Both the position numbers and the translations under genes were made by a program. A DNA stretch of 60,442 nucleotides from a candidate division WOR-3 bacterium (GTDB lineage Bacteria > Hydrothermota > Tepidihabitantia > B3-TA06). Numbering within the stretch: the stretch's first letter is position 1; each line of letters starts with the position of its first letter. The DNA lies in assembly GCA_965649265.1 (NCBI GenBank), contig CBFGKC010000011.1:1-60442 (forward strand). Reading direction: 5' to 3'. Below are positions 1 to 11,261 of this stretch, one piece after another. Below the pieces are notes generated by a model. The model saw only the letters and a list, made by a program, of their open reading frames with translations, had not been told where the DNA came from and did no database searches.

Positions 1-22
1 ATTATTTTCTCCTATATTTTTA

Positions 23-110
23 AGCAAAGAGGGAAGTAAGTCCGCCTCGTTACAAGACTCGACTAAAGGAAATTATACACTTTTGGATAACGTCCGTACT
101 TATGATTGCT
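23..110 (-). ncRNA. candidate structured 5' leader RNA, copy B
   Basis: Homologous to 2097-2184: AGCAA/TTGCT closing stem and shared AGTCrAGTCTTGTAAyGAGGCGGAC block. Confidence 0.5.
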
Positions 111-118
111 ATATTTAC

Positions 119-146
119 ATTATAGTGATATTTATGGCACGGTCAA
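119..146 (-). promoter_or_regulatory. sigma70-type promoter for a leftward gene starting just outside the window
   Basis: Reverse complement reads TTGACC-N16-TATAAT; the window edge reads AGGAGAAAATAAT on the minus strand (RBS plus the first 2 nt of a probable ATG). Confidence 0.75.
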
Positions 147-147
147 G

Positions 148-187
148 GAGCCCTGGCCGGAGGCCAAGGCAGGGCTCTTTTCTTTTT
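148..187 (+). terminator. rho-independent terminator-like hairpin
   Basis: GAGCCCTG...CAGGGCTC stem followed by a T-rich tract. Confidence 0.55.
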
Positions 188-239
188 ATCTCTCTTTTCA
201 AGAAAGAAAACAGCCGAGCGAGCCACCGGGAGTGATACG

Positions 240-423
240 CTTCCGCCAATTCATATTTACATCTCAATGAGGAGCGCCTGGAAGGCGCATGAGAAGTTTT
301 GCTTGGATTTCATCTACGGGGTAGCAAAACTTCACGAACCATCGTCGCGGAGGCTTGAGCTTCGGCAATGAAAAGTGCCACGATTGATACAATCCTCACG
401 TCGCTTCGCTCCTCAGAATGACT
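240..423. repeat. mosaic of REP-like palindromes
   Basis: GCGCC-loop-GGCGC at 274-288 with flank matching 11566-11615 (reverse complement); GAAGTTTTGCT/AGCAAAACTTC hairpin; CGCTTCGCTCCTCAGAATGAC REP-like unit. Confidence 0.6.
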
Positions 424-536
424 ACCCGGGAGAGGAGGCGCTCTGCGTCTCGCAGCGTCAATAGAGGGGAGGGGGTGAGCGGCTTGACAAGACCCTCTGC
501 CGGGGTATGCTCTTTAAAATCAAATAAGGAGGAAGC

Positions 537-785
537 GTGACATTGTGGCTCGTGATCGCGGTTATTACCGGGCTCGTGCTTATCGCGGCGGGCGTTCTTA
601 TAGCGGTTCTCAAAAAACAGTGGCTTTACATACTCTACATGGCGGTGCCGGTTCTTCTGGCCGTCGGGCTCATCGTTCTGGGCGAACTTACAAACAGGGA
701 GTCGTACCCGGCCTCCATACCGTTCATGGCCGGCATGTGGGTGATCTTGATTGCGCTCTTTGCACGAAACAAAAAGAGCGACTGA
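537..785 (+). CDS. small membrane protein (about 3 TM)
   Basis: Promoter TTGACA-N16-TATGCT (484-511), AGGAGG RBS, three hydrophobic segments. Confidence 0.75.
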   Translation: MTLWLVIAVITGLVLIAAGVLIAVLKKQWLYILYMAVPVLLAVGLIVLGELTNRESYPASIPFMAGMWVILIALFARNKKSD

Positions 786-962
786 GTACTTCTTTCAGGG
801 CACTCATCCTTTTGGTTCCCGGATAGTTTTCCCATGAGCGCAGATGTGCTGCATCTGTAAGTCGCATGGGCCGAAGATTCTCTTCCGTAAAGATAATTTC
901 ATATCAAAGAAGAATGGAATTCTGCAGAGGGGGGCTCTGAGGGGGGTAAAGGAGGGCTGAGG

Positions 963-1397
963 TTATTTCTTGGTTCGGTTTTTTGCAAAAGTTATAAGGA
1001 GTATAGCAACGATAATAGAAATGACTGATCCGGCAACCGGGGCAATGAGATTTTTGATCTGTCCGACCGCGCTGATATTTGACTGTTTTAAGAAAACGAG
1101 AAGTCCGGCAACAAAAATGCTAATGCACGCAACTGCAATAATTGCAATAGAAGATCGAGAGTGGCGTGGAGCGCTTTGAGAAGGGTCTTGAGGAGGGCTT
1201 TGAGGAGGGCTCAGAGGAGAGCTAGGAGAGCTAGGAGGGCTAGGAGGGCGAGGAGGGGGAGGAGGGTGAGGAGGGCTGGAAGAGGGGGCTGAGGTGGAAC
1301 TCTCGTCTTTTCCCCTCCTGATAAGAAGAATGACTATTACTACGACAAGCAGGATAGCTAAACCAATCGAGATGGAAATCAAAACGGGATTGTTCAC
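963..1397 (-). CDS. membrane protein with Pro/Ser-rich linker
   Basis: One N-terminal and two C-terminal TM segments; promoter TTGTTT-N16-TATAAT (1440-1467, minus strand). Confidence 0.7.
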   Translation of the reverse strand: MNNPVLISISIGLAILLVVVIVILLIRRGKDESSTSAPSSSPPHPPPPPRPPSPPSSPSSPLSPPQSPPQDPSQSAPRHSRSSIAIIAVACISIFVAGLLVFLKQSNISAVGQIKNLIAPVAGSVISIIVAILLITFAKNRTKK

Positions 1398-1500
1398 GAT
1401 TTCTCCCTGTGAAGGTCAAGTATCTTCACGACGGGTGGAATTATACTTATCTACTGATCGGAAACAAGCCTCCTCGATAAGTTAACCAGGCCAGCAACAA

Positions 1501-1800
1501 CTAATTTAAACCATTCTTTCCTGACGCCCAGTGTGCTATTCGTTTGAGGTTCTCGTCGAACGTCTCGGACTCCTCGCTTTCTGTAAGGTCGGAGACCTCG
1601 AGGGCGTAGTAGGAGAAGATCTCATCGAGTATGTTACGCATCTCTGCGGCTTCCTTGCCGGACGCCGGCACCTTTGGGACGTTAACGGTATAAGTACCGT
1701 CGCTAAGCATGGTTGTAGCCGGGGTCTCCTCGCCTGCGACGAAGCCTATACTTACAAGTGCTGAAATTATGTTGCTTGAGGGAGGTATCTTACCTTTCAT
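1501..1800 (-). CDS. divergent HicA-like small protein (paralog 1)
   Basis: IISALVSIGF...LSDGTYTVNVPK...EIF...IAHW; GGAGG RBS; aligns by eye with 2212, 2991 and 12027. Confidence 0.7.
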   Translation of the reverse strand: MKGKIPPSSNIISALVSIGFVAGEETPATTMLSDGTYTVNVPKVPASGKEAAEMRNILDEIFSYYALEVSDLTESEESETFDENLKRIAHWASGKNGLN

Positions 1801-2061
1801 AAATCACCTCCGGGGTTTGGTTTTTCCCTATCCTGACCATCTTTCTCCCAATTACTATGACGTCCGGTAGAGCCGGATTGTTCGCGTTCGGCCCTGTCAT
1901 GTTGGACATAAACGGGTGTTTCACGTTGTCTGAAAAAGAATATTGTCCTTGGGGAGGTTCTTGACGATATTGCTTGATCTATTGGCTTGTGGCTGGCGGC
2001 TTCCACCCCCCCCCCTTGTAAGTTATAGTAGTGAAATGGCAGAAGCGCCCCTGGCCGTTCC

Positions 2062-2089
2062 TTGACAATACTATAAATATTACTATAAT
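2062..2089 (+). promoter_or_regulatory. sigma70-type promoter
   Basis: TTGACA-N16-TATAAT with perfect hexamers. Confidence 0.85.
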
Positions 2090-2096
2090 GAATACA

Positions 2097-2184
2097 GGCA
2101 ATAAAAAGTATGGAGTTTTCCAAGTAAGGCTAAATCCCATAAGTCAAGTCTTGTAATGAGGCGGACGTAACTTTCTCTTTTGCC
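2097..2184 (+). ncRNA. candidate structured 5' leader RNA, copy A
   Basis: GGCAA/TTGCC closing stem, TGGA/TCCA hairpin, GTC/GAC plus GTCTT/GAGGC hairpin; homologous to the reverse complement of 23-110. Confidence 0.5.
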
Positions 2185-2211
2185 CCAAATAAAAATAAAA
2201 GGAGATATAAA

Positions 2212-2490
2212 ATGACTCAAAATATCACAGGTGATCACATCATCAGCACACTCAAAATCTTAGGATTTACTGAATCAGCCGAAAAAGCAGAAAAGCCCAA
2301 TTACGTGAGCCTTAAAAACGGCGAGCACAAGATTAGCATTGCAAAAGGAATACTTGAAGCCGACGAAACTTCCCGTGTGCGCACCGAACTGGGCCCCATA
2401 TTCAAGGCCCTTGACACCAAGATTTCGGCGTCTACCGATGCCACCCTTCTGAGCGTTAAAGAATGGCTCAAGGCTCCTGCCGCTGCTTGA
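2212..2490 (+). CDS. divergent HicA-like small protein (paralog 2)
   Basis: TGDHIISTLKILGF...LKNGEHKISIAKG...PIF...VKEW; AAGGAG RBS; own promoter and terminator. Confidence 0.8.
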   Translation: MTQNITGDHIISTLKILGFTESAEKAEKPNYVSLKNGEHKISIAKGILEADETSRVRTELGPIFKALDTKISASTDATLLSVKEWLKAPAAA

Positions 2491-2517
2491 TCGATTCAGA
2501 TCATTGTGAGAACCTTT

Positions 2518-2542
2518 GCCCGCCATATGGCGGGCCTTTTTT
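2518..2542 (+). terminator. rho-independent terminator
   Basis: GCCCGCC-ATAT-GGCGGGC followed by CTTTTTT. Confidence 0.85.
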
Positions 2543-2571
2543 GACGAATGATAAAAAATAGCAACAATGGC

Positions 2572-2599
2572 TTGACAAATTACAGGAAAGTACTATAAT
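2572..2599 (+). promoter_or_regulatory. sigma70-type promoter
   Basis: TTGACA-N16-TATAAT. Confidence 0.85.
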
Positions 2600-2708
2600 C
2601 GATATAATAGCAACCCAGTATGGGAGTCACCTTACAATTGATTTCTCTACCCAGGTTGTATAATCATTATGTTGATTCTTTTTGACATAGTTAATTAAGG
2701 AGAGTTTA

Positions 2709-2957
2709 ATGTCACATGGAAACACCACTCGATACAAAGCCAACCTTCTTAACTCTATATGGTTTATTTTAAAGCGTATTTATGGAATCGTGCGCGGGCT
2801 TCACAGAGACTCTTATCTCATAGGGGTATCACGTAAAGGTCTCGACTATAACAACCAAATCCGCGCAAGAAATGTTTTTTTTCCCATCTACACATTCGTT
2901 AAAAGCATGGACAAAGAGTTCGTGCGTGAAGCCGTCGAAGATCGGCGTAGAAGTTAA
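2709..2957 (+). CDS. small protein, most divergent member of the HicA-like family (paralog 3)
   Basis: AAGGAG RBS; LLNSIWFILK..GLHRDSYLIGVSRKGLD..IRARNVFFPIY aligns with SLKLLGFIEK..TLHNGKHEISITKGWLE..TRLYNALLPIF of 2991. Confidence 0.6.
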   Translation: MSHGNTTRYKANLLNSIWFILKRIYGIVRGLHRDSYLIGVSRKGLDYNNQIRARNVFFPIYTFVKSMDKEFVREAVEDRRRS

Positions 2958-2990
2958 AGTATTTGGCTATCTATTATCAAGGAGATTTGC

Positions 2991-3284
2991 ATGGCTCAGC
3001 CAACAATGACCGGCGATAGTATTATCGCTTCCCTTAAACTCTTAGGGTTTATTGAGAAAACCAACGGGGACCAGGCATCAAACCAGATGACCCTTCACAA
3101 TGGAAAACACGAGATTTCGATCACAAAAGGGTGGCTCGAGGGAGCCGAGGCAACGCGGTTGTATAACGCATTGCTGCCTATATTCAAGGCGTTCGAGAAC
3201 CAGGTGCAGGCATCTTCGGACCGCAACCTTCATGACGTAAGGGACTGGCTCGAAGCCAGGACCGCTAAGATCAGAAACAGCTAG
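2991..3284 (+). CDS. divergent HicA-like small protein (paralog 4)
   Basis: TGDSIIASLKLLGF...LHNGKHEISITKG...PIF...VRDW; clear paralog of 2212; AAGGAG RBS. Confidence 0.8.
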   Translation: MAQPTMTGDSIIASLKLLGFIEKTNGDQASNQMTLHNGKHEISITKGWLEGAEATRLYNALLPIFKAFENQVQASSDRNLHDVRDWLEARTAKIRNS

Positions 3285-3435: not shown

Positions 3436-3604
3436 CCCGTAACACCCCGTACCCACAGGGCATTATCATAATCAAACGGAGCTTCGCTCCGAAGTCTAAG
3501 GAAATAACACCCGTACCCCTTCGGGGTATTTTCATCGGCCGCTTGAGTTCAAAGGAAATAACACCCGTAACACCCGTAACACCCCGTATCACCCCGTAAC
3601 ACAC
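3436..3604. repeat. CCGTAACAC / AAGGAAATAACAC repeat cluster
   Basis: Two AAGGAAATAACAC (3498, 3552) plus tandem ACCCGTAAC units; related copies at 11811, 18471-18607, 22131-22186 and 24156. Confidence 0.8.
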
Positions 3605-3866
3605 TCCCTCTCGACATTACTCGTGGTTTATGGAAGATGCCTTCAGATTGTTTCTGGAGTGTTTCTGAGGGGGTTGCGACATAGGATGTCGCATGTCGGA
3701 CTTCGTTAGACCGGAAGAGGTCCCTGGATAGTTACAAAAAAGAGAAAGGCTCTGAGGAAGGCTCTGGGAGGGCTGAGGAGGGCTGGGGAGAAACTTGCTT
3801 GACATCCTTGCGTCTTATATGCATACTTCTGAAACATTCCGTATAGTTTTGACCAAGGAGGAATAG

Positions 3867-7794: not shown

Positions 7795-9492
7795 CTAGTC
7801 CGCCTGGGGTGCCGGAAGAATGGGCAGTGGCTGCATACCGGCCTTGCTCTTGCGAACCTCCATCTCCGAGAGAAGAATGCTCGGCGCGACAACGGAAGAG
7901 TTCCCCCCCTCCCGGGTTAAAACTCCCGGTTCAGAACCTGCGGCTATGATTCTCGTAAATGTTATGAGCGGCGACGCAGGAAGCGCTTCGACACCGCGTT
8001 CAAGCTCCTTGCGACCGTCCGTGTAGAGCCTGTAAACCTCCAAAGGCTTGAAGGAGCTTGATGACTCTCCGGCGCCTGCAAGGTTAAACACCATGCCGTT
8101 GATGATCAGGGTATTGTCGGCGTTTCCTCCACCTCCTTCGTCGAGACGTGCTGTGGAGATGATGAGACCATAAGGTTTTCCGAGCTTGCGGCATTCGGCG
8201 ATTAGCGCATTCTCGAGACTCTGCTCGCTTTGCGGCGCCGAGGATTCGAGAATGAGGTTGCCCGCGCATACCCTGTCGGATCTGAAGTGACCGTTGGATT
8301 TTTCAAATCCCTTGACGGGCGAGCGGGAAAGCAGGACGTTCTTTAGGATGCCTTGCGTGACGAGGTTGACCCTTTGACCCGCAACGCCCTGGTCGTCGTA
8401 GCGGTAGAAACCTGCAAGTGGATGCCCCTTGTAAGTCGCGATGGTCGGATCATCGTAGATGTTGATCGAGGGAAGCAGGATTCGCTGTCCGGCCTTGTTT
8501 TCGATGCCTTCAGAGGAATTGGGGGAACTTTTTTGTGCCGTAAGCAGCGGTGCAAGTTCTGCGGCTACGTACACCGGCGAAGCCGGGGACTTTATGAGGA
8601 CCGGGCCTGCGTATGATTCGCAATCATGTGCGTTACGCAATCCGGTAACCCCATCGAGCATCTCTTCAATACCCTGTTCAATCGTTTTCGTGTCAAAAAG
8701 CCCGTCAACGGACGCGAACCTTTGCTCAGTCGATATCGGCATCCCGTCCTTTGAACGTGTGAATGCCGAAACGACAATGATGTAGCCGGTATTTCCTTCC
8801 TGTATCCTCGAGCCTTCGCTAGAGACGAAGTAGGAGTTCAAAGCCCTTGCCTCGAGCGCCACGCTGGAAATCAATATATCCGGATACTCGCTGAATATTG
8901 CAGATAAAGCCTTTATGCGCTCTTCCCACCCTGGCTTGTCGAGATCGAGCGCAACCACGCTGCCGATGTAGTCGGCGGGCTGCTGAATGCTGAAATCCGC
9001 CTGACTTTCTTCGCCCGACACAAGGAGTGTCTGCTTGACTTTTTTGGAGTAATCCTCCAGTGCCTTTTTGTAAAAGTAATCGGTGGCAAGCCACAGCTGA
9101 TGCTTCAGGGCATCGGTATCATTTTCACACGGCAGGTGCCTGTATTTGTAGGAGTCGCCACTCTCCCAGACGGAACTCTCGAGATTCGAGTTGTCGAGTT
9201 CGTAGTCGCCTACACGAAGATCTACTTTCAGATTGCGCGTATCCGATTCGTCGGATTGAACGAGCGTTCCAAGGCTCGCCTTTATCGTGACGGTCGAGCT
9301 GTCCTGTACGAGGTAGCTGATGAAATAGGGTCTCTCGCGTCCCTCGATCCGGAGATCCTTCATCGAGCGATCGAGTTCGGAGCGCATTGCCTCAAGAATA
9401 GGGGAGGGGGAGGCTCCCTGCGGTGTGCCGGGGGTGGCCAGAACAAAGGTGCTCAGGGCGAGCGAAAGTAAAATTGTTTTCATCCTTTTCAT
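7795..9492 (-). CDS. exported TldE/PmbA-like subunit (non-catalytic)
   Basis: Paralog of 9504; DDPT..YRYDDQGV..LVTQGILK..SNGH motifs; lacks HExxxH; signal peptide. Confidence 0.85.
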   Translation of the reverse strand: MKRMKTILLSLALSTFVLATPGTPQGASPSPILEAMRSELDRSMKDLRIEGRERPYFISYLVQDSSTVTIKASLGTLVQSDESDTRNLKVDLRVGDYELDNSNLESSVWESGDSYKYRHLPCENDTDALKHQLWLATDYFYKKALEDYSKKVKQTLLVSGEESQADFSIQQPADYIGSVVALDLDKPGWEERIKALSAIFSEYPDILISSVALEARALNSYFVSSEGSRIQEGNTGYIIVVSAFTRSKDGMPISTEQRFASVDGLFDTKTIEQGIEEMLDGVTGLRNAHDCESYAGPVLIKSPASPVYVAAELAPLLTAQKSSPNSSEGIENKAGQRILLPSINIYDDPTIATYKGHPLAGFYRYDDQGVAGQRVNLVTQGILKNVLLSRSPVKGFEKSNGHFRSDRVCAGNLILESSAPQSEQSLENALIAECRKLGKPYGLIISTARLDEGGGGNADNTLIINGMVFNLAGAGESSSSFKPLEVYRLYTDGRKELERGVEALPASPLITFTRIIAAGSEPGVLTREGGNSSVVAPSILLSEMEVRKSKAGMQPLPILPAPQAD

Positions 9493-9503
9493 TTCTTCCT
9501 CCT

Positions 9504-11261
9504 TTACAGCTCGGGTTCGCTCAGACCCTCTCCCTTATTGGATGGCGAGGAGGGTGAGGGGGGTAAAGAGGGTGGCGGCAGTATGGGCGGTTTACGATTG
9601 CTTGCCTGCTCCTTGGCAATCTCTATCTCGGAAAGAAGTATGCTTGGCGAAACAAGGCCCGCCGGGACGGCTCCCGACTCTGCGCCGCAGAAGCCGTTGA
9701 AAATCTCAGGGTCGTCGCCTGCCGCGACTATCTTGTTAAGCGCTGCCAGCGGCGTACCACCGAACTTGACCCCGCGAACAAGCTCCTCCTTGCCCGTTTT
9801 GGCATCCACACGGTAGACAAGGAGTGGGTTTGACTGGAAAAGCTCCATGAAGCTCCTGCCGGTATTGGTGGCACCACCCTCCGAACGCACAAAGATGAGA
9901 CCGTAAGGTTTCTTCTGTTTGCGGCATTCGGCAAGGAGAAGGTTCTTGAGGTCGGTGAAAGATGTCGGCTTCGAATTCTCGAGAATGAGATTTCCCTGCC
10001 TTGAGACCGGCATATCGCCGTAGCCCGCGTACTCCATCTGCGCGCGTCCGTGCCCGTTGGAGGACGCAAAACCCTTTATGGGCTTGCGGCAGCAAAGGAA
10101 TCCTTTCAGCACGCCGTCGGTAATAAGCTCGGTGCGCCTTGATGCGACACCCTCGTCGTCGTAGAGGTAGGAGCCGTTTAACGGCTTTCCTGCATACTCC
10201 TTGACGGTCGGATCGTCGTAAAGTGAAAGAAAAGCAGGCATGATTCTTGAGCCTACCTTATCCTTGAAGGTTTCGCCGGATTCCCTTGATTCAAGCCTCT
10301 GCGATTCGAGCCGGTGGCCGTATGTTTCGTGAACGAAAACCGCCGCGGCCCGGCCCTCCATAAGCGCGGGACCGACGTAGGCCTCCATCACGGGCGCGTT
10401 CTTGAGCGCAATAACCTCACCGGCAAGCGCTTTTATCTCCTTGCGTATCGTGGAATCGCCAGGCAGCTCGTCCTCGGTCCAGCCGAAGAAATTCCGGAAG
10501 CTTCGAACCCACATGCCGTCATCGGCCTGGGTGGAGGCGCTGATCCTTATCCAGTAGGCTAGACTGCCGTCCTGAATCTGTGACCCTTCACTCGAGCAGA
10601 AGTAGTTGTTGCGCGCCTCGACCGAAAACGAAACACTCGATTCCTGTATATCGGGATACTCGCGAAAGAGCGTGGAGAGTTCTTTCACCTCTTTTTCCCA
10701 CTTCTGCCGGTCAACTTCCACACGCACCTCGTCGCCGACATATGTGACGGGTTTTTCGCGGCTGAAATCGTCCGAGCGTGCCTCGCTCACCTCCGTTGCG
10801 CGTTGGCCTTCCTTCCTCGAATACTGCTTGAGCGCCTGCTTGTAGCGTATGTCGGTCGCAAGCCACAGCGCGCGAGAAAGCAAGAGGGTGTCATCGGTCA
10901 ATGGAACCGGAATCCTCCTGTATTCCTCGTCGCTCTTCCCCTTCTCCGGGTCGTAATCGTAAATCTGGTCCGCGGAAGGCATGTTGTCGAACTTGTAGTC
11001 GCCGACCCTGACCTGGGCGGTGAGTAAACGCGTGTGAGTGTCCGAAGAATCCATAAGCGCGCCTAACTTTGCCGAGGTTGAGAATTCGGCGCGGTCAATC
11101 AGATAATAGCTTATGAAATAAGGTTTATGCTCGTGCTCGATCTGGAGCTTGTTCATGGAGCGGTCAAGCTCCGTTTTCATGACATTCAAGATGGGGTTCG
11201 GCACGGCCCAAAGGGAAAGGGTCGCCGTAAGTGCCGTTATCACCAGATACTTCACTCTCAT
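9504..11261 (-). CDS. exported TldD-like zinc metalloprotease
   Basis: HETYGH (HExxGH), YDDEGV, SNGHGR, C-terminal GFCG Cys; signal peptide. Confidence 0.88.
   Translation of the reverse strand: MRVKYLVITALTATLSLWAVPNPILNVMKTELDRSMNKLQIEHEHKPYFISYYLIDRAEFSTSAKLGALMDSSDTHTRLLTAQVRVGDYKFDNMPSADQIYDYDPEKGKSDEEYRRIPVPLTDDTLLLSRALWLATDIRYKQALKQYSRKEGQRATEVSEARSDDFSREKPVTYVGDEVRVEVDRQKWEKEVKELSTLFREYPDIQESSVSFSVEARNNYFCSSEGSQIQDGSLAYWIRISASTQADDGMWVRSFRNFFGWTEDELPGDSTIRKEIKALAGEVIALKNAPVMEAYVGPALMEGRAAAVFVHETYGHRLESQRLESRESGETFKDKVGSRIMPAFLSLYDDPTVKEYAGKPLNGSYLYDDEGVASRRTELITDGVLKGFLCCRKPIKGFASSNGHGRAQMEYAGYGDMPVSRQGNLILENSKPTSFTDLKNLLLAECRKQKKPYGLIFVRSEGGATNTGRSFMELFQSNPLLVYRVDAKTGKEELVRGVKFGGTPLAALNKIVAAGDDPEIFNGFCGAESGAVPAGLVSPSILLSEIEIAKEQASNRKPPILPPPSLPPSPSSPSNKGEGLSEPEL

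Follow-up and report, generated by a model that had tools for sequence, protein, structure and literature searches.

The window considered here, positions 1–60,442 of contig C11 (CBFGKC010000011.1) of a candidate division WOR-3 bacterium, carries two copies of an untranslated leader of about 105 bases, each lying between a consensus-type sigma-70 promoter and an AGGAG ribosome site. The leader is quite probably a functional structured RNA of some kind. This judgement rests on its repetition within the window, its conservation in another genus, the compensatory changes in its closing helix, and its exclusive placement before genes of one family of small proteins, whose structural model has a HicA-type fold. 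With seven examples in a single family-level lineage, its reach is small, and it is a credible new and very rare motif outside the described RNA families.

Copy A occupies positions 11–114 on the minus strand and copy B positions 2092–2196 on the plus strand. The promoter of copy A (119–146, minus strand) consists of TTGACC (146–141) and TATAAT (124–119) separated by 16 nucleotides (nt) and agrees with the consensus at 11 of 12 positions; that of copy B (2062–2089) consists of TTGACA (2062–2067) and TATAAT (2084–2089), also 16 nt apart, and agrees at all 12. On the side of copy A, the stretch from the promoter to the contig end comprises positions 118–1 of the minus strand, with AGGAG at 13–9 followed by 8 nt. 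Since the window begins at base 1 of C11, the gene served by copy A, including its start codon, lies outside the assembly. Copy B is followed by an A-rich linker (2185–2198) and by an AAGGAG ribosome site (2199–2204), which 7 nt separate from the start codon (ATG, 2212) of a 92-residue protein gene (2212–2490, plus strand). In the genome assembly to which the window belongs (27 contigs, 2.74 Mb), a blastn search of all contigs returned no copy beyond A and B.

The original prediction had described this shared layout in the reverse complement of 1–146 and in 2062–2211, and on re-reading all of its sequence statements hold. They include the 23/25 identity of a 25-nt block (reverse complement of 64–40 versus 2142–2166) and the stems read by eye, namely AGCAA/TTGCT in one copy versus GGCAA/TTGCC in the other, a GGA/TCC hairpin, and GTC..GAC around GTCTTG..YGAGGC. 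When the reverse complement of 1–160 was aligned with 2050–2225 by MAFFT, the mean column identity was 80%. The likeness of the two leaders is far above chance: stripped of their promoters, they reach a local alignment score of 68, compared with 16.8 ± 2.4 (maximum 28) for dinucleotide shuffles, none of which (0/1000) attained that score. The copies lie on opposite strands but do not form a back-to-back divergent pair, because they are 2 kb apart and three genes, 537–785 (plus), 963–1397 (minus) and 1501–1800 (minus), intervene. The leader contains no conserved reading frame; on the antisense strand the frame of the conserved block differs between A and B, and the two have no start codon in common. 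A leader peptide was considered on the basis of ATG-GAG-TTT-TCC-AAG-TAA in copy B and was rejected, as copy A has no start codon there.

A third copy of this kind, which together with A and B we call type 1, is located at G002:C51:378–481 in another genus, in front of an orthologue whose product is 61% identical to that of 2212–2490. It emerged from a pattern search of 11 genomes of the taxonomic family, with the conserved block at G002:C51:427–451 and a distance of 46 nt from there to the orthologue's start codon, and the order of promoter, leader and ribosome site is the same as in A and B. Pairwise identities among the A, B and G002 leaders are 81/116, 84/117 and 77/122; because the three are about equally distant from one another, the duplication of the leader is old rather than recent. 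Between B and G002, for which the leader value is 77/122, the coding sequence is identical at 186/276 positions and its third codon positions at 43/92, and the DNA upstream of the −35 element is essentially unalignable. The leader is better conserved than the third codon positions.

RNAalifold folds the three type-1 copies into a three-way junction, which the RNA would presumably also adopt in the cell. The junction is closed by P1, a helix of 5 base pairs near the predicted 5′ end, and contains the hairpins P2 and P3, the latter with the consensus GUC-rA-GUCUYG-UAA-YGAGGC-r-GrC; a pyrimidine tract, J3/1, leads from P3 back to P1. In copy B, P1 is formed by 2097–2101 with 2180–2184 (GGCAA/UUGCC), followed by J1/2 (2102–2108), P2 (2109–2119 with 2131–2141), P3 (2143–2166) and J3/1 (2167–2179). 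The corresponding parts of copy A on the minus strand are P1 at 110–106 with 27–23 (AGCAA/UUGCU), J1/2 at 105–99, P2 at 98–88 with 75–65, P3 at 63–40 and J3/1 at 39–28, and the minimum free energy (MFE) fold of copy A by itself forms P1, P2 and P3. A covariance model of the three type-1 copies, R1, matches A with 106.9 bits and B with 108.4 bits.

Over the three copies 94.4% of 72 pair cells are paired, compared with 38–47% when the partners are slid. In P1, two of the five pairs have changed on both sides and none is broken (AGCAA/UUGCU, GGCAA/UUGCC and GACAA/UUGUC); in P3, with nine pairs, 0/27 cells are broken, and the three one-sided changes all preserve pairing. Together, P1 and P3 show 0/42 broken cells. 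The fold belongs to the sense strand alone, because on the opposite strand the invariant U–G pairs of P3 would turn into C–A mismatches. Conservation is concentrated in P3, in which 19/24 columns are invariant, compared with 3/12 in the P2 loop and 5/15 in the 3′ tail.

A diverged form of the leader, type 2, stands before a two-gene operon of paralogues in G002, G005 and G001 and in the metagenome locus L035; this locus is the only metagenome locus returned by a related-locus search with a 6-row alignment, which gave none in genome contigs. The type-2 leaders agree with type 1 in promoter spacing and in length, measuring 119–123 nt from the −10 element to the ATG, and close with P1 of GGCAA/UUGCC. 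When R1 was run with filters off, three of them (25.2, 24.7 and 17.2 bits) exceeded the best noise match and that of G001 tied with it at 12.5 bits. In its own MFE structure, each type-2 leader, like the type-1 leader of G002, adopts a P1-closed multi-arm fold; the fold energy z of type 2 is −1.4 to −1.8 in three of the four and +0.28 for G001. Forcing P1 costs only 0.1–0.6 kcal/mol of ensemble energy in 7/7 leaders. The two types have junction bases in common, namely UAAG in J1/2, AUWAG before P3, and GUUAY plus the pyrimidine tract in J3/1, and each gene clade carries its own version of P3. RNAalifold gave no structure on the MAFFT alignment of eight leaders, in which P1 is shifted by one column.

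Placement follows the gene family closely. Besides A there are seven leaders. Six of them (B, the type-1 leader of G002 and the four of type 2) stand in front of a clearly recognisable gene of the family; the seventh, a degenerate leader at 2600–2708 of the window, is followed by a degenerate family gene. By analogy, the gene to the left of window position 1 is likely a paralogue of the family, as had been suggested. The motif is absent upstream of the distant family genes in G003/G008, on contigs C319, C337 and C205 of G005, on C75 of G002 and on C96 of G001, and upstream of position 1800 (minus strand) of the window.

The position of P1 bears on what the leader might do. In 7/7 leaders P1 starts 8–11 nt after the −10 hexamer, that is, a few bases from the predicted transcript start, and it is the best-supported helix; 5′-terminal stems are a means of stabilising mRNAs, as in ompA-type leaders. 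One could therefore imagine a constitutive 5′ untranslated region (UTR) without any effector, in which the stem at the 5′ end shields the mRNA from 5′-end-dependent decay while the A-rich linker and the strong ribosome site raise translation of an abundant small protein; the A/U-rich linkers, which in type 2 are predicted to be open, and the promoters with 11–12 of 12 consensus positions fit such an arrangement. It would, however, not account for the nearly complete sequence conservation of P3 (19/24 invariant), loop and bulges included, and of J3/1 in a leader that drifts elsewhere, nor for the clade-specific versions of P3, and we hold it to be unlikely.

Searches further afield support the rarity of the motif. 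R1 in 132 genomes of the class and, with laxer filters, in 11 genomes of the family gave nothing further convincing, and neither did R2, the covariance model of the type-2 leaders, in the family and class scans. Weak covariance-model matches in G004, G008, G041, G058 and G094 were dismissed as noise, those in G004 and G008 having the appearance of coding sequence. A scan of genome contigs with the P3 pattern returned five stretches, all inside open reading frames (ORFs) of unrelated phyla and estimated to be about the number expected by chance; the same scan of viral contigs returned none. Phage records contained no match to the leader, and three AT-rich matches of 37–45 nt among plasmid records were discarded as chance. 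The whole window has no match at gathering score to any of the 4227 families of Rfam 15; over the leader core, none was seen in 1–3000 at E up to 10, and six related loci had none at E up to 1. The Rfam comparison thus bears out the claim of an unrecognised RNA. A full-text literature search, covering the articles proper, listed none that links HicA to a structured leader, and the term 'HicA' does not occur in the candidate-RNA surveys among the articles listed.

What kind of protein is encoded downstream of this leader? The AlphaFold2 model of the 2212 product (predicted local distance difference test score 82.6) shows a helix, three strands and a helix, followed by further helices, and its best PDB matches in Foldseek are HicA chains, namely 5yrz_B (probability 0.99, E 0.036), 1whz, 6g26_E and 4p78_C, none of them with E < 0.001. 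The 2212 product is thus predicted to share with HicA toxins (PF07927) the alpha-beta-beta-beta-alpha fold, which resembles that of double-stranded RNA-binding domains. Beyond the fold, the family departs from these toxins: it is extended at the C-terminus by about 30 residues, which bear a conserved SxDxxLxxVRDWL and are predicted to form two or three helices, its isoelectric points (pI) are 5–7 rather than 10, and it lacks a match to the hidden Markov model (HMM), the G-S-H motif and a HicB-like neighbour. The 2212 product has no Pfam, NCBIfam or PADLOC match, and 0/13 family members match the HMM of PF07927 at E up to 10; the same model does find a true HicA elsewhere in the genome, at C10:46955–47122. 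An hhalign comparison of the family with six true HicAs of the lineage gave a probability of 67.6% over 32 columns, which comprise helix 1 and strand 1. In HicA, the histidine of the G-S-H motif before strand 2 has a catalytic role. G-S-H is invariant in 6/6 HicAs of the lineage, and hhalign, within those 32 columns only, sets P-N-Y opposite it and not the G-E-H of the family. No HicB match to Pfam was obtained among the neighbours, which are paralogues or membrane proteins. Because it has no G-S-H motif, no basic charge and no Pfam match, the family does not belong to the HicA toxins, although it shares their fold, and the earlier wording 'HicA-like genes' is right for the fold, as indicated by the HicA chains in Foldseek, but not for HMM match, catalytic motif or charge.

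The HicA-type fold also brings to mind a toxin–antitoxin arrangement, in which the leader would be cut off as a separate small RNA and serve, for instance, as the RNA antitoxin of a HicA-like toxin in a type III manner. The expansion and variability of the family, which reaches up to 10 copies in G005, would be in keeping with it. Neither 1–150 nor 2050–2211 contains tandem repeats, however, there is no terminator between leader and gene, and the proteins have neither the G-S-H motif and basic charge of HicA nor a PADLOC match; this explanation is very improbable indeed.

We propose that the leader forms the 5′ untranslated region of an mRNA whose transcription would begin a few bases after the sigma-70 promoter. 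The three-way junction of P1, P2, the sequence-conserved P3 with its UAA loop and the J3/1 tract would come first, and the A-rich linker and the strong ribosome site would follow it. In this arrangement the leader would serve as a cis-acting post-transcriptional control element for the lineage-specific small proteins of HicA fold; because it holds no terminator, any such control would fall on translation or on mRNA stability. It would most probably be recognised by a trans-acting factor, for which the encoded protein or a paralogue is the most economical candidate, in a feedback such as that of ribosomal-protein or cspA leaders, with P3 as the type-specific recognition hairpin. Protein feedback is ranked first as the mode of the leader because the leader is confined to one gene family, P3 is clade-specific and the product has a fold of RNA-binding type, yet by this analogy it is plausible only in a tentative sense. 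The A-rich linker between P1 and the ribosome site measures 9–19 nt. In all three type-1 copies the purine-rich 3′ strand of P3 is able to pair with the pyrimidine tract, and in 5/8 leaders this tract pairs with the ribosome site at a probability above 0.1; according to these predictions, a switch by alternative pairing is possible.

Several observations weigh against such a structured control leader. P2 is unpaired in 4/30 cells. Four pairs in total have changed on both sides, a number equalled by 18/500 shuffles, with a structure derived from the same sequences. For this reason a search-corrected helix test was run, and its outcome favours the fold: P1 was the only helix of at least 5 base pairs that is paired in all three copies and has at least two covarying pairs, and any such helix occurred in just 5/1000 column-shuffled alignments. 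The fold energies of type 1 are ordinary (z −0.12, −0.69 and −0.27). The evidence base consists of three type-1 and four usable type-2 sequences, and the statistics are thin because these are few and, within type 2, three hardly differ from one another. On type-1 leaders R2 scores 27.5 and 23.5 bits, no better than its chance matches elsewhere in the genomes, which reach 24.2 and 24.1 bits. The leader contains no terminator and no evident expression platform; the predicted accessibility of the ribosome site ranges from 0.30 to 0.90 (0.83 and 0.90 for the open sites of the type-2 leaders of G002 and G005, 0.49–0.50 for L035 and G001), and no sequestering helix is common to the leaders. Nor is the length of the leader telling: the genome contains 169 sites of the form TTGACN-N16-18-TATAAT, and by a crude count the distance from a consensus promoter to the following gene start is 115 nt or more in 39/121 cases, so the idea that a leader of about 120 nt is unusual was rejected, and neither promoter nor leader length is special in itself. 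As to the protein, its tie to HicA is at the fold level only, and 11/13 family members have a neutral to acidic pI of 5.0–6.8, compared with 9.9–10.5 in 6/6 true HicAs. This charge speaks against feedback, yet it is not decisive, because CspA acts on the leader of its own mRNA despite being a small acidic protein.

The small number of sequences and the ordinary fold energies would also suit a history without any RNA function, in which the leaders owe their likeness to shared descent of promoter-proximal DNA that was duplicated along with the gene, perhaps containing a DNA operator for a transcription factor; the core of P3 is in fact an imperfect palindrome in DNA (GTCTYG-TAA-YGAGGC, 4–5 of 6 positions), and with 169 consensus promoters in the genome the shared layout is partly generic. 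Two compensatory double changes in P1 between strands 80 nt apart are hard to reconcile with this history, as are the G–U pairs, which make the helices strand-specific, and the fact that the leader outlasts third codon positions although just upstream of the −35 element the DNA is unalignable. Moreover, 50–75 nt past the start would be an unusual place for an operator. We consider the absence of RNA function to be quite improbable. On the 3 + 4 sequences at hand, the tests named by the original prediction favour a functional RNA: no Rfam family matches, P1 shows the two compensatory double changes and neither P1 nor P3 a broken pair, and conservation is uneven and above that of synonymous sites rather than decaying uniformly. 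The claim of a functional RNA is supported by these results, by the third copy and by the shape of type 2, though they do not amount to proof.

A further possibility is raised by the genes that follow the type-2 leaders. In L030 (G002:C51, 2071–3381), L021, L056 and L035 (827–1304), the type-2 leader, the two paralogues and a B12-binding radical SAM gene follow one another directly, only 10–14 nt apart. The best NCBIfam matches of this enzyme are of the HpnJ, PhpK and BchE types, all far below the cut-off. The genome of the window has six radical SAM homologues, five in tandem on C5 and one on C26, none of which follows 2991–3284, the second of two paralogue genes downstream of the one at 2212; repeat arrays stand there in place of the radical SAM gene. 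The small proteins of the family might be partners or substrates of the radical SAM enzyme.

Because the type-2 operon runs straight into this gene, ligand sensing stays alive as an explanation: the junction would bind a small molecule or ion, perhaps one belonging to the B12-radical-SAM chemistry, and thereby change downstream translation. A P1-closed three-way junction adjoining the predicted transcript start is a familiar architecture for a riboswitch-like sensor, the junction bases are common to both types, the contiguity with the enzyme gene recurs in G002, G005, G001 and L035, and alternative helices (columns 72–76/93–97 and 75–80/94–99) are paired in all three type-1 copies. On the other hand, not one of the 4227 Rfam families matches even at E 10, the distribution is extremely narrow, with one family-level lineage, P3 is kept as a sequence and not through covariation, the search for a consistent terminator or sequestering helix came up empty, and the type-1 gene of the window is monocistronic with no enzyme partner. 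A sensor of this kind appears unlikely to us. The preferred reading, control through a protein, can be extended to a self-contained RNA–protein feedback module of a new class, in which a HicA-fold protein without the nuclease motif recognises P3 of its own leader and co-duplication has led to at least two specificities, types 1 and 2, one of them gating the B12-radical-SAM enzyme; alternatively, the junction would act as aptamer in a riboswitch class not yet described, connected with the chemistry of that enzyme. This joint proposal, in either form, is doubtful.

The gene family itself is small. At E ≤ 0.001 it comprises 19 cluster representatives among 1.84 billion, and a protein word-index search gave two matches, the query itself and one relative of 78% identity. 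The family is present in 6/61 genomes of relatives, the own genome counted, all in the taxonomic family f1; a profile search of 272 genomes of the phylum was positive in eight, of which six, again with the own genome counted, belong to f1 and two are marginal. In G005, which is 81% complete, 10 family matches lie on five contigs (C285, C337, C205, C319 and C268), often in tandem, and to judge from these sequences they represent a lineage-specific expansion.

Within the window, the 2212 transcript would end at an intrinsic-terminator-like hairpin of seven G–C pairs followed by a T-run (2518–2535, plus strand). It is followed on the same strand (2572–2708) by a third consensus promoter (2572–2599, 12 of 12 positions) and the degenerate type-2 leader at 2600–2708, before the genes at 2709 and 2991. 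This leader shares position and promoter spacer with the type-2 leaders of the relatives; R1 misses it, P1 is lost, and its MFE fold, with a z of −2.39, pairs the ribosome site. The first of the two genes (2709–2957, plus strand) encodes a degenerate paralogue of 82 residues without the LGF and GEH motifs, which matches the family profile at E 1.2e-23 and is strongly basic, with a pI of 10.5. By its sequence, the segment 2600–2957 appears to be a decaying or re-purposed copy. The second gene (2991–3284, plus strand) encodes a paralogue of 97 residues with 46% identity to the 2212 product. The gene at 1501–1800 (minus strand) encodes a distant member of the superfamily with 99 residues (E 2e-8); its upstream region was read and holds no leader of this kind.

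Several other features of the neighbourhood were noted. Arrays of 9–12-nt repeats (GAGGAGGGC, TAACACCCCG and GGAGGGCTGA) occur at 1168–1277, 3559–3602 and 3742–3790; the first lies inside the ORF 963–1397, where the translation reads as a linker rich in Pro and Ser that joins two membrane segments, and a related decamer array is found within the membrane-protein gene 876–1196 of G002. Window positions 238–335 match 16 other places on eight contigs with 76–95% identity, some of them in tandem at a spacing of about 63 nt (C3:162481–162740), and thus belong to a dispersed intergenic repeat. A run of ten C at 2006–2015, between gene 1501–1800 (minus) and the promoter of copy B and about 205 nt upstream of the start at 1800, could be a slipped-strand tract. 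Directly upstream of the −35 element, at 149–178 of the window and in L030, L035 and L021, there are hairpins rich in G+C, many of them with TCC as the loop. The one at 149–190, which on the plus strand leads into a T-run, is terminator-like and would face leader A. At 7795–11261 (minus strand) there are two adjacent peptidase genes of the TldD/PmbA type, and the corresponding pair in G001 adjoins the homologue of the 1501–1800 gene.

If the leader is real, it would add one more rare class of regulatory RNA, an undescribed structured leader from an almost entirely uncultured lineage, attached to an unannotated family of small proteins that resembles a domesticated HicA fold. It would then offer a handle on the roles of these proteins and of the B12-radical-SAM enzyme co-transcribed with them in the relatives. 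Since its promoters are of the standard sigma-70 kind, the leader is open to direct testing in reporter fusions in Escherichia coli.

Compared with known systems, the leader shares with three-way-junction riboswitches, such as those for purine, TPP (thiamine pyrophosphate) and c-di-GMP-II (cyclic di-GMP, class II), a P1-closed junction of two hairpins near the transcript start with conserved junction bases, but it matches no known class, has no clear expression platform and is known from a single family-level lineage. With type III toxin–antitoxin systems such as ToxIN it has in common a structured RNA directly upstream of a small protein gene in one transcript, whereas tandem RNA repeats and an internal terminator are missing here and the protein family is unrelated. 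The leaders of ribosomal-protein genes (L1, S15 and L20) are autoregulatory protein-binding elements, many of which are Rfam families; they too are structured leaders of about 100 nt that belong to one gene family, lack a terminator and carry a sequence-conserved hairpin ahead of the ribosome site. The present leader differs from them in having no Rfam match and a product that is not ribosomal, is neutral to acidic and is only a candidate RNA binder. The cspA 5′ UTRs are long leaders with a 'cold box', common to paralogous csp genes, and act as RNA sensor and feedback site. As in their case, strong promoters are followed by long leaders that are related among the paralogous small-protein genes, but our leader does not match the Rfam model of cspA and the protein folds are unrelated. 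By analogy, then, the leader described here appears to be nearest in its logic to the ribosomal-protein and cspA leaders.

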